Source: Escherichia phage 24-32N. Taken from it: DNA of 64,000 nt. The position numbers and the translations under genes are program-made. Positions 24,648 through 26,880 of this stretch are shown in pieces; positions within the stretch are counted from its first letter, which is position 1; every line of letters begins with the position of its first letter. The DNA lies in the sequence record PV933157.1. The stretch is one strand, 5' to 3'. The notes beneath the pieces were generated by a model. The model had not been told where the DNA came from. It was given only the letters and a program-made list of their open reading frames with translations, and made no database searches.

Positions 24648-24873
24648 TCTGGTAGGTGGCTCAGAAGCTGCTGCTAGGTGTGGTAGTGTTTATAGTCCTG
24701 ATGCTACTACTGGTCAGGATTATAGACGTGTCGGCTCCATACATAGCTTTTATCATCACTGTCATTATCCTGTGGAAATGCAGTGGTAAACACGGTGGTG
24801 ACAAGCCGCCAGAGTAACAACAACAACCGAACCAGTGGATTGGAATACTCTCCCCAGTCCATTGGTTCAATCT

Positions 24874-24899
24874 AAACTAAGTGGAAAAGTTAGTTTTTT
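24874..24899 (+). terminator. AT-rich hairpin with T-run (weak terminator)
   Basis: Stem AAACTAA / TTAGTTT followed by a T-run. Confidence 0.3.
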
Positions 24900-25880
24900 C
24901 TTGGGTGTAGAGCCTGTTGAAGTAAACAAAGAATCTCACAATGAATAGTTAATATCGTGAAGGGTTCTGTTAGAATCCTTTGAGATAGGAACTCCTATCA
25001 TAACCTTTCTTAACTTAATCTTTGCCGTATGGCACTGACGCTAGGGTTGGCCCCCATCCGTCAGTCAGACTATTTTAAGAATGGGTTATCACAGAAAATG
25101 TAAAGCAACATTCGGGTTAATCAATGGCCTCTCCCTATAGGGGCCATTTCTGAATCTAAGGCTATATCCCAAAGGTCGGTATCTTTGGGATAAGGCTTCA
25201 GATCCCTTATCAAACTAACGCTCATGTTGAGCACAACATTAACCAATAATGTCGGATAGTTCATTACGCTATTCATCCAGCATCGAGATGTTAGGTCTTA
25301 CATGTAAACTAAATCATAGGGTAAGGAGGGATTCGTCCTCCCTCCCCTATTATGACATCCTATCAATGAGTACACTTCAAGTGGTAGGCCTGCCGCTCTT
25401 GAAATTCATCTGCAAAGCTGGGAGTGTACTCTTTGATAGTTTTCGTAAGCGATTATGCGGTTTTTTAGAAACGAACCAGTAACATAAATGCAAACGATGA
25501 TGTTATTCTGATGGCGGCGTAATAGCCTGTAAGTCAGCAAGGTCTTCCGATTCCTTGTAAACAAATTCGGCGCACTGGCCCGGTGTGATTAATAATAGGC
25601 ACACAACAGGTAAGAGCATTGGTGTACCAGAAGCCCGTGGGTTATGGCTAAGGAGTCCCAAGTGAGCGCATCAGTGCTCTTTCCGTTGTGGTGAATGCGC
25701 AGGCTGATGCGCAGTGGGACGTGGCTGACTCACGGGGATGGCTCAAGCGAATAAGCAAGCTCGACGCCGCCGAATAAGCGCCTTATGCCGGAGATCAGTA
25801 CCGGCCACCACAACAAGTCCAGACGATATCTGAGTGACTATAAAAACAGATGGAGCCAGGTGGAATCCCTGGCAATTAAT

Positions 25881-25947
25881 TCCGGTGTAGGTACTAGCGT
25901 TGTGCACAAACGTGAGTGTTCTGGTTCGAGTCCAGACGCCGGAACCA
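25881..25947 (+). tRNA. tRNA-like element (short, D-arm apparently missing); possible degenerate tRNA
   Basis: Hand-folded: acceptor TCCGGTG / CGCCGGA, T-arm TCTGG-TTCGAGT-CCAGA, encoded CCA, candidate anticodon arm GCGTT-GTGCACA-AACGT (GCA); only ~64 nt. Confidence 0.3.
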
Positions 25948-26441
25948 ATTCAAAGTAGCATTGCACTAATCCATCCCGGAGTTCAAAGGCCAAACATGGA
26001 GCAGTGCTACTTTGAATTAGAAGAATTATGGTGGGTCTGGTGAAGTAGATAGGGTTCGATTCCCTCCAGTAGAGAAATCTACTAGCGTGCTTGGTGCACG
26101 AATAAGACTTAATACTGATGGTTCGATTCCATCCCCCACTACCTATTTGAGGTGTAACAGTTAAATCCAGTTGCCGGAAGTGCTATTCTAGATACGCTGC
26201 CAATGTGTGAACGGTAAGGCTGTACAGGACTCGGACTCCCACCTCAAACCAAAGTCGCCAGGTACTTATGGCAAACGGGTAGTAACGAACTAGTCATTCG
26301 TCAAACGCCCACCCAATTATGAGTCAGCAAGAACGCCTTCACTTAAACTTAAACAAAAAAGCTTAACGCAATAATTATGTAGGGGTATGTAAGGATTGCG
26401 AAGAAGGAGCCAGTTAAAGCCTGGCATGACTCCCTTATTAA

Positions 26442-26517
26442 TACCCGGTAGGCTTAGTGGTAAAGCCCCACTAGTAAACCAACTAGGACGCAGGTTCGAA
26501 TCCTGCCTGGGTAACCA
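26442..26517 (+). tRNA. tRNA or tRNA-like gene with atypical anticodon arm
   Basis: Hand-folded: 7-bp acceptor, D-arm GGCT/AGCC with GG loop, canonical T-arm GCAGG-TTCGAAT-CCTGC, encoded CCA; anticodon stem CTAGT/ACTAG has a 6-nt loop. Confidence 0.45.
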
Positions 26518-26523
26518 TAATAA

Positions 26524-26597
26524 GTCCACTTAGCTTAGACGGGGAAAGCAACCGACTAATAATCGGAAAGTCACTGGTTCAAATCCAGTAGTGGACA
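26524..26597 (+). tRNA. tRNA gene (hand-folded anticodon AAU, needs confirmation)
   Basis: 7-bp acceptor GTCCACT / AGTGGAC, D-arm GCTT/AAGC with GG loop, anticodon loop CUAAUAA, T-arm ACTGG-TTCAAAT-CCAGT. Confidence 0.55.
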
Positions 26598-26845
26598 CCC
26601 ATTCAGCAGTAACATAGTCCTGATTGCATTGCACTCTAAAGACAACACTGGTAAGACAGTCCAGTGACTGCTATTGTATTGTTATTCCCCTCGACGGGAA
26701 TTTCGCTGGAGAATAGGAACTCCTTAAATCCTAGCCTGAGCGATATGAGTGGACTATCAATCCAAGTAGCACACCAGTTAAGCGTACCTGAACCTGGTAC
26801 TCATAGAGTTCATACAAGCCTCCCAGCTATGGGTAAATAGTACTA

Positions 26846-26880
26846 AGTCCCCTGGAGCCGCCTCTCTGGGGGACTTTTTT
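26846..26880 (+). terminator. Rho-independent terminator
   Basis: Stem AGTCCCC / GGGGACT with an inner GGAG/CTCT helix, followed by a T6 run. Confidence 0.6.

Follow-up and report, generated by a model that had tools for sequence, protein, structure and literature searches.

The locus described here raises the question of what a phage encodes in some 2 kb of DNA that carry no credible open reading frame (ORF). It lies in a 64-kb stretch of Escherichia phage 24-32N (PV933157.1; the whole stretch is called the window below, and positions refer to it), a Gamaleyavirus-type (G7C/N4-like, Schitoviridae) coliphage. The original prediction had described a hairpin-dense region with tRNA-like elements, and had suggested that it is more than a plain tRNA cluster. 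The region from 24818 to 26882 is found to be a co-directional array of structured RNA genes (+ strand, as are all features of the window described below), which contains a tRNA-Ile, several tRNA-shaped RNAs, long hairpin cassettes, and the non-tRNA RNAs C1, D, and E, and which has a single terminator at its end. These modules are cassettes that recur in unrelated phages. The most informative element of the array is absent from the original prediction. It is the central module (25435-25812), a previously unannotated RNA that is identified by sequence comparison as derived from transfer-messenger RNA (tmRNA), and that combines a tag frame with an antisense domain.

The tag frame of the tmRNA-derived RNA

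The tmRNA-SmpB system is the main ribosome-rescue and protein-tagging system of bacteria. In a permissive Rfam scan, the central module gives sub-threshold matches to tmRNA_permuted (31.1 bits; threshold 47) and beta_tmRNA (18.9 bits; threshold 84). These partial alignments center on UAAAUGCAAACGAUGA...UAA, i.e., CAUAAAUGCAAACGAUGAUGUUAUUCUGAUGGCGGCGUAA, and include an A-rich linker (25467-25489) that ends in AUAAAU before the resume codon and is nearly invariant in 32 sequences. The phage linker, GACCACAAAGAUAAAU followed by GCA, is a diverged sense homologue of the host GCCGCAAAAAAUAGUC followed by GCA. In the 32-sequence alignment AUAAAU plus GCA is invariant, and it matches the betaproteobacterial consensus of UAAAU plus GCC. 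The conserved U and A of tmRNAs are thus found at positions -5 and -4 of the resume codon.

The resume codon GCA at 25490 opens a frame of ten codons that ends with UAA at 25520 (25490-25522; GCA AAC GAT GAT GTT ATT CTG ATG GCG GCG TAA, corresponding to ANDDVILMAA and a stop), which is the layout of the mRNA-like domain of a tmRNA. A pattern scan of IMG/VR returned 139 instances of the tag module, 129 of which are non-identical and contain 33 nucleotide variants and 20 peptides of the tag. The ten codons and the stop are kept in all of them (129/129 instances, 33/33 variants), the stop being TAA except for two cases of TAG. The peptides follow the pattern A-N-[DENS]-[DEN]-x-x-[LM]-[AMVI]-[AV]-[AP], in which the Pro end occurs in a single sequence. 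Examples from relatives are ANDDVVLMAA, ANEEAYLMVA, and ANNETYLMVA, among which Ala is encoded by synonymous codons. Among the variants, synonymous codons of Ala, Val, Leu, and Glu replace each other, as do TAA and TAG. The variability is highest at the third codon positions, the other two frames are unconserved, and one pair of variants shows an apparent compensating in-frame rearrangement (GUUGUU lost, AUGGUA gained). Because the length is kept, the third positions are the most variable, the swaps are synonymous, and the other frames are unconserved, the tag frame is taken to be under coding selection. The host sequence CGAAAACUAC is found in none of the 33 phage versions. Translation of the tag from an AUG was rejected, because the overlapping AUG frame varies in length.

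The last tag codons and the stop are part of a helix-5-like hairpin (25508-25537), in which CUGA/UCAG is exchanged for CUGG/CCAG and the inner stem has compensatory changes. It is followed by two H-type pseudoknots (25537-25600), PK2 (25537-25571) and PK3 (25571-25600), with compensatory variants in all four stems (CCGA/UCGG, CCAG/CUGG, and GUCG/CGAC; CGCAC/GUGUG, CGCAU/AUGUG, and CGGAU/AUCUG). Helix 5 and pseudoknots downstream of the tag, as known from tmRNA, are thus supported by covariation. For these comparisons anchored parsing was used in place of a global alignment of 63 representatives, which was unusable because of variable inserts. A scan of the genome collection with TAAATGCAAACRAHGA lacked stringency, and most of its hits were due to chance; the real tmRNAs among its results served as controls.

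The tag module is present in 323 phage records and annotated in none of them. The carriers are N4-likes of Escherichia, Klebsiella, and Salmonella, P1 and P7, Ackermannviridae, several siphophage groups, and Erwinia and 'Vibrio' phages. Of 5426 complete E. coli genomes, 623 likewise have the module without annotation, for the most part on P1-like plasmids. Its place in P1 is the leader of the ban operon, where the annotated dicF-like region lies on one side and tRNA-Asn on the other. In the siphophage Sa179lw the element lies by itself in a 570-nt gap, flanked by structural genes of opposite orientation. A near-consensus promoter-like sequence (TTGACA-17-TAGATT) is placed there such that the RNA would begin with the antisense domain (GAUAGUUUUCG), and a terminator-like hairpin is also present.

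The segment of the window from pseudoknot 2 to the end of domain X, a tRNA-shaped domain described below (25538-25813), is 98-100% identical to positions 4428-4703 of a siphophage-type contig of the Sa179lw type (L185), and the antisense-tag block is 88% identical. Since the flanking genomes are apparently unrelated, the 98-100% identity argues for a very recent transfer of the cassette between phage families. The same intergenic slot as that of Sa179lw is occupied by different cassettes in Salmonella phage Segz_1 (L208, 852-1402), i.e., a long hairpin, C1, and a shared 3' module without a tag, behind the same promoter-like region with its -35 element mutated to TTGGCA; cassettes at one locus seem to have been swapped here in nature. 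Erwinia phage Bue1 (L333, ~490-620) has a divergent tag module with the resume context AUAUAAUC followed by GCA and the tag ANDNEFKVAA, and its antisense arm contains UCGUCGU (the complement of host ACGACGA) and an insertion. Sub-threshold Rfam matches to STnc100, a Salmonella small RNA family, were seen in P1 (L083, 3682-3801) and in Shigella phage Ag3 (L084, 2699-2808), at 33-34 bits versus a threshold of 47. They may mark another cassette common to the RNA islands of these two phages; no equivalent was seen in the window.

The antisense arm, domain X, and the proposed mode of action

The tmRNA-derived RNA begins with GAUAGUUUUCGUAAGCGAUUAUGCGGUUUUUU (25435-25466), an antisense copy of E. 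coli tmRNA nt 67-106. In ten of ten phage types the reverse complement of this 5' segment aligns to nt 67-106, UAAAAAGCCGCAA[AAAAU]AGUCGCAAACGACGAAAACUA; the L088 and L099 types match at about 32 of 39 positions, with one 5-nt deletion. The target spans the 3' strand of pseudoknot 1, the linker with U85 and A86, the resume codon, and codons 2-6. The duplex of the 32-nt arm of the window with tmRNA has a predicted energy of -31.6 kcal/mol (z = -5.6), which is reached by none of 300 dinucleotide shuffles. The z values of the other three types tested are -3.4, -3.9, and -1.8, and every best site falls within nt 60-108. With the first ~60 nt of the phage RNA and tmRNA nt 41-108, the energies are -47 to -51 kcal/mol and the shuffle means -31 to -39 kcal/mol, the observed value being reached by 0/100 shuffles. 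On these calculations, the complementarity to the host tmRNA site is extended, conserved, and beyond chance.

The arm pairs with host tmRNA nt 60-135 at -30 to -36 kcal/mol, versus -14 to -23 kcal/mol with the downstream sequence of the element itself, and cofolding gains -20 to -27 kcal/mol. With whole tmRNAs the energies are -32 to -40 kcal/mol for E. coli and -18.5 to -32 kcal/mol for Legionella and Oxalobacteraceae. Since the arm pairs better with the host than with its own sequence, the sense linker has diverged, and the host CGAAAACUAC is missing, the element has the appearance of an inverted repeat of host tmRNA nt ~67-106, in which the antisense half seems to have stayed matched to the host, while the sense half seems to have drifted from self-complementarity and to have kept the tag frame. 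The distance from the end of the pairing to GCA is 22-25 nt in the phage RNA, and that from the host pseudoknot-1 stem to GCA is 23 nt (by-eye count). An alternative homology of GUUUUCG...GCGACUUUGCGG to the D-loop and helix 2a of tmRNA was considered; it was not supported by automated alignment, and the antisense relation explains these bases better.

The tRNA-like domain of a tmRNA is missing. ARAGORN calls no tmRNA in the window or in 208 related phage loci, and no acceptor stem with G3:U70, together with a T arm and CCA, is found around the tag. Upstream of 25435 in the window there is neither a T arm nor a CCA, and the gene order of a permuted two-piece tmRNA is not found. Two candidates for a hidden domain were rejected. 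One would pair the UGUGGUG of the promoter-like spacer of siphophages with the 3' CACCACA, and this UGUGGUG is absent from the N4-like, P1, and prophage copies. The other would form a G3:U70 acceptor stem from the repeated CAGUGCUCUUUCC and GGUAAGAGCAUUG, in which the wobble is unconserved in P1 and Ag3 and after which no T arm follows.

Downstream of the pseudoknots lies, as in many further copies of the module, a hairpin cassette of ~20 bp (25602-25690), consisting of CACAACAGGUAAGAGCAUUG, a tip of variable length (34 to 263 nt in the homologues), and CAGUGCUCUUUCCGUUGUG; covariation of the stem is seen by eye in two of the loci (L191 and L107) and in phage Ag3. In a prophage-like IMG/VR contig (L157, ~1380-1890), the hairpin tip after the pseudoknots is enlarged to ~500 nt and has, by eye, an apparent ORF on the opposite strand. 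Hairpin tips of this kind would then be places where mobile DNA inserts.

The 3' part of the module is the tRNA-shaped domain X (25687-25812). It is composed of a 7-bp acceptor-like stem, UGUGGUG/CACCACA (25687-25693 with 25806-25812), a 2-nt linker, and two hairpins, S4 and S5, between which lies an insert that varies from 23 to 175 nt. S5 has 5 bp and directly adjoins the 3' strand, and the loops of S4 and S5 are joined by five Watson-Crick pairs. Over 32 distinct sequences the model has 24 pairs, 96.4% of cells paired, and 10 compensatory pairs; these values are matched by 0/500 shuffles, and slid controls reach 26-52%. In a distant N4-like phage the stem is UACGAUG/CAUCGUA. The domain has U3:A70 rather than G3:U70, a variable base after the stem, and no encoded CCA. 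In the window it comes after the tag module, and the same order is seen in 28 of the 129 non-identical instances, namely those that pass the layout filter (24 distinct sequences). P1, Ag3, and several N4-like variants have the tag module without an adjoining domain X, and domain X occurs without the tag as well, e.g., in a distant N4-like locus (L024). The copy of domain X in P1 (NC_005856, ~69.8-69.9 kb of the record; L083, ~3420-3520), AAUGCACAGGCUGAUGUG ... GUCGGAGUUCAGCACCGAC, is closed by UGUGGUG/CAUCACA and lies on the strand opposite to the annotated plp/upl coding sequences (CDSs). The alternatives are an overlap of these small CDSs with an RNA gene or a mistaken annotation of the CDSs.

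That the encoded peptide is under selection implies translation of the tag, and in the absence of a start signal this implies trans-translation, which needs a charged tRNA-like domain. Because the antisense arm is the only conserved link to such a domain, the reading favored here, with a probability of roughly 0.45, is a docking of the phage RNA on host tmRNA, with the host tag masked and replaced by a template of the phage. The phage RNA would base-pair with host tmRNA across the 3' strand of pseudoknot 1, the resume codon, and codons 2-6. This pairing would mask the host tag template and would tether the phage template to the charged tRNA-like domain of the host and to SmpB, as in a two-piece tmRNA, so that stalled ribosomes would resume on the phage frame and add (A)ANDDVILMAA. 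The more general proposal, that phage RNAs of one widespread class (in P1, N4-likes, Ackermannviridae, several siphophages, and prophages) reprogram ribosome rescue in trans as a chimeric virus-host two-piece tmRNA, is tentative and should be taken as possible rather than probable. Several points weigh against the docking. Both the docking and the swap of templates are what we infer from the sequences, and the ribosome would have to accept a template held by base pairs alone, at a site unlike that of natural two-piece tmRNAs. No covarying equivalent of pseudoknot 1 is found before the resume codon, where RNAalifold gives only invariant short pairings and where the antisense segment takes up the position of pseudoknot 1. 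The duplex energy of the P1 type has a z of only -1.8. The antisense target is nearly identical in all enterobacterial hosts, and Salmonella phages and coliphages carry the same GAUAGUUUUCG. N4 and pSb-1-type phages have a short hairpin in place of the whole module, which is also missing from G7C and is thus a dispensable cassette in this phage group. Moreover, the position of domain X directly downstream of the tag leaves room for a mechanism in cis.

In such a mechanism the element would be an unconventional cis-acting phage tmRNA, in which domain X acquires CCA, is aminoacylated, and delivers the upstream tag, the antisense segment being structural or a relic. The tRNA geometry of domain X (7-bp acceptor stem, 2-nt linker, 5-bp T-like stem, and loop-loop contact), its ten compensatory pairs, and its place after the tag in the window and in 28/129 instances are in keeping with this. 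However, the domain has neither G3:U70 nor an encoded CCA, the base after its stem is variable, and the tag template is joined to the acceptor 5' end and not to the anticodon position, so that RNase P probably separates the two. With the tag and domain X also occurring apart from each other, and with the antisense segment matching host tmRNA far better than its own sequence, a cis-acting tmRNA is regarded as improbable. The missing link to a tRNA-like domain in the usual topology would also fit a pure anti-tmRNA inhibitor or decoy, an RNA that only blocks host trans-translation by pairing, may soak up SmpB or S1, and retains the tag frame as an untranslated remnant. The complementarity to tmRNA 67-106 is what such an inhibitor requires, and synthetic antisense oligonucleotides complementary to tmRNA suffice for suppressing tmRNA-mediated release in vitro (PMC3384345). 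A remnant is nevertheless difficult to reconcile with ten codons and a stop kept in 33 of 33 variants, often by synonymous substitutions and once by an in-frame compensating rearrangement, with the highest variability at third codon positions, and with unconserved alternative frames. The helix-5-like hairpin and the two pseudoknots kept by covariation are likewise needless for a simple antisense RNA, and a pure inhibitor is therefore considered unlikely. Least of all is to be expected from the view that the region is an ordinary tRNA cluster with decaying tRNA and tmRNA pseudogenes and recombination scars, in which only one or two real tRNAs function. While only two tRNAs are called, one of them (T1, see below) with a defective anticodon loop, and while the module content varies by phage, with N4 and G7C lacking several modules, blocks of the region are 90-99% identical between phages whose adjacent RuvC-like proteins are 69% identical. 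Compensatory changes in at least eight separate structures, a tag frame preserved in every copy, and modules that recur in unrelated phage families and in active-looking tRNA clusters make simple decay very improbable.

Setting and other modules of the array

The closest records to the region are those of vB_EcoP_CU10EC and IME11, with ~94% identity across it. The neighboring genes (+ strand) are homologues of the N4 single-stranded DNA-binding protein, a RuvC-like protein, and an acidic 147-aa protein upstream, and gp48/gp49 homologues downstream. When 79 loci, gathered via the neighboring RuvC-like protein, are compared with the region by BLAST, the region splits into blocks, several of which N4 itself and Klebsiella-type N4-likes share at 90-99% identity, whereas the RuvC-like protein of these phages is only 69% identical. 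For the non-tRNA modules in phages with this degree of RuvC-like protein identity, the nucleotide identity is 85-100%. The segments between the conserved blocks vary by phage and include differing tRNA sets. The block pattern points to purifying selection on the RNA modules, to recent exchange, or to both.

The region had been taken to be free of ORFs over about 2.2 kb. No credible ORF is found in 24818-26882, but 24656-24817 encodes a hydrophobic protein of 53 aa (GTG start, beginning with VAQKLLLGVVVFIVLMLLLV), which is 81-87% identical in N4, pSb-1-type, and Klebsiella-type relatives with more diverged DNA. It is probably a real gene for a small membrane protein, usually left unannotated, and because it is conserved as protein, the ORF-free part is ~2.06 kb. 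A similar small membrane ORF stands ahead of the RNA island in the distant N4-like locus L024.

A consensus scan gives a sigma-70-like promoter candidate at 24949-24976 (TTAATA-16-TAGAAT with a TG extension), possibly the start of the RNA operon; the site is weak, and promoter-type consensus matches in the region are not above chance. At the other end, a terminator scan finds a strong intrinsic terminator (26845-26876), a 13-bp stem followed by a U-run, which closes the array and matches in position the terminator placed by the annotators of PhAPEC5. tRNA-like elements border most modules of the array, which fits a scheme in which transcription would yield a single precursor, with RNase P and 3' tRNA-processing enzymes cutting it at the tRNA-like 'punctuation'. 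In an Rfam E-value scan of 24000-27500, only tRNA is above threshold, and the GOLLD, ROOL, and ribozyme models are unmatched.

At least five T-arm motifs had been noted. GGTTCRANTCC occurs exactly five times in the 64-kb window (25923, 26053, 26120, 26493, and 26576), in each case on the + strand and inside the region; 0.16 would be expected by chance, and five are reached in 0/100 shuffles. ARAGORN and Rfam explain just two of the five, and the reading as a plain tRNA cluster was rejected on this ground. The one well-formed tRNA that had been folded by hand is called by ARAGORN as tRNA-Ile (26524-26599; 65.6 bits with the Rfam tRNA model) with the anticodon AAU, and is a cloverleaf with a 7-nt anticodon loop above the Rfam threshold. 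An unmodified A34 is unusual in bacteria, and this tRNA may therefore be deaminated to inosine or serve a role beyond ordinary decoding. The second is the tRNA-like T1 (26442-26517), whose 6-nt anticodon loop (AAACCA) had been noticed; it has an encoded CCA, is 'tRNA-???' for ARAGORN, scores 40.1 bits with the Rfam tRNA model, and is present in only three related loci.

The other three T arms belong to less conventional RNAs. The element without a D arm that had been described as ~64 nt with an encoded CCA is real and 67 nt long (module C2, 25881-25947). A T arm and an anticodon-like hairpin with the loop GUGCACA accompany its 7-bp acceptor stem, and ACCA is encoded. Four of its 22 pairs are compensatory, in the anticodon-like and T stems, and its acceptor stem is invariant. 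Neither ARAGORN nor Rfam calls it, and one depositor has annotated it as 'tRNA-OTHER'. The remaining two T arms (26053 and 26120) are not called as tRNAs. They had been thought to lack a matching acceptor stem; both lie within one predicted 113-nt tRNA-like multi-branch fold, module F2 (26029-26141; z = -2.0 for the minimum free energy fold), which is closed by GGUGGG/CCCCAC, ends with CCCCACUACC, and is conserved in ten loci. F2 also contains the GAAA-tetraloop hairpin (26068-26083), one of the strong hairpins originally pointed out, whose fold is confirmed.

The fold of another of those hairpins, TATCCCAAAG/CTTTGGGATA (25159-25198), is likewise confirmed (z = -4.5, 0/200 shuffles); the block that holds it is conserved only among Gamaleyavirus relatives and is present in 12-13 loci. 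It is one of three long hairpins with z below -4. The second, CUAUCAAUGAGUACACUUC ... GGAGUGUACUCUUUGAUAG (25361-25438; -29.8 kcal/mol, z = -4.1), abuts the tmRNA-like RNA, and the third is cassette F1, AAGUAGCAUUGC ... GCAGUGCUACUU (25951-26014; z = -4.3). F1 has its GCAUUG/CAGUGC top in common with the 25602-25690 hairpin, and such long cassettes recur.

The non-tRNA modules C1, D, and E show covariation as well. Module C1 (25816-25878) consists of two hairpins, the second with an invariant T-loop-like UGGAAUC loop, has four compensatory pairs, and is also found in unrelated siphophages of Klebsiella, Salmonella, and Shigella. Module D (26146-26248) is a structured RNA of ~100 nt with at least four helices (23 pairs, 98.3% paired, 6 compensatory, 0/500 shuffles), which also occurs between tRNA-Asn and tRNA-Asp in the tRNA cluster of the rV5-like Enterobacter phage F1M1E and in rV5-like Pectobacterium phages. 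Block G (26251-26441) is 95-100% identical in 12 loci and shares the motif UGUAGGGGUAUGUA with the 3' part of a siphophage RNA gene (match to L085). Module E (26606-26671), right after the tRNA, is a three-helix RNA with 16 predicted pairs, ten of them compensatory, and is confined to N4-likes. At least four cassettes of the array, domain X, C1, D, and E, are candidates for new RNA families. Comparison with related phages, which had been proposed as a check, thus finds the non-tRNA modules conserved and with compensatory changes. Because the predictors explain two of the five T arms and the remaining modules are conserved and covary, the original prediction holds in this respect. Overall it is borne out for the most part, its interpretation being correct in outline though not complete.

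Relation to known systems

The tmRNA-derived RNA resembles one-piece tmRNA (SsrA, RF00023) in its GCA resume codon after UAAAU, its 10-residue tag of the ANDx...AA type followed by UAA, the tag end in a helix-5-like hairpin, and the H-type pseudoknots downstream. In contrast to one-piece tmRNA, it is without the usual acceptor/T-arm domain, G3:U70, and CCA, scores below the Rfam threshold, is negative with ARAGORN, and begins with an antisense copy of the host template region. Its best partial Rfam matches are to the two-piece permuted tmRNAs of Alpha- and Betaproteobacteria and cyanobacteria (RF01849-51, RF04321), with which the proposed phage form would share the attachment of a coding RNA to an acceptor RNA solely through base pairing. 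Unlike these, the phage encodes no upstream acceptor piece, the proposed partner being the complete tmRNA of the host, and the pairing would be to the host template region, not to helix 2. The anti-ssrA oligonucleotides used in cell-free translation and ribosome display are also antisense nucleic acids complementary to tmRNA, whereas the present element is an RNA of natural origin, encoded by a phage and fused with a template for a replacement tag. A published oligonucleotide of this kind may resemble the phage segment in sequence.

The species 1 and 2 RNAs of the phage T4 tRNA cluster are stable non-tRNA RNAs, and mascRNA is a tRNA-like 3'-end processing signal. As with these, non-tRNA structured RNAs are interleaved in the present array with tRNAs or tRNA-like elements on one strand; processing of the array by RNase P is presumed.

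Phage tmRNAs detected with ARAGORN are present in ~2% of phage genomes (PMC9004378). An exhaustive search of RefSeq viruses in 2014 found ssrA only in mycobacteriophages, apart from Bacillus phage G and the tRNA-like-domain-only form of DS6A (PMC4131195). A database of 2025 has 79 phage sequences, as well as forms without a coding sequence, and in the parts of it that were searched none without the tRNA-like domain is described (PMC11915505). The tmRNA of mycobacteriophage DS6A consists of the tRNA-like domain only and is proposed to interfere with host trans-translation (PMC4131195, PMC11915505). It is, like the present element, a phage-borne truncated tmRNA derivative, but it keeps the tRNA-like domain without a tag frame, whereas the present element keeps the tag frame without that domain. 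Literature searches returned no description of the element in P1, N4-like, or other phages, nor of a natural anti-tmRNA RNA.

The known phage copies are complete tmRNAs or tRNA-like domains only, and the element described here is the opposite form, a tag template with an antisense arm. It is missed by ARAGORN and Rfam, RefSeq annotation has no feature at its position, and it is unannotated in the model phage P1 and in hundreds of therapy-candidate coliphages and phages of Klebsiella and Salmonella. If the proposed docking is true, phages would rewrite the degradation signal on the unfinished proteins of the host, or would switch tagging off, which would be a new kind of host takeover. Even if this mechanism is wrong, the 'tRNA islands' of phages are mosaics of exchangeable structured-RNA cassettes.

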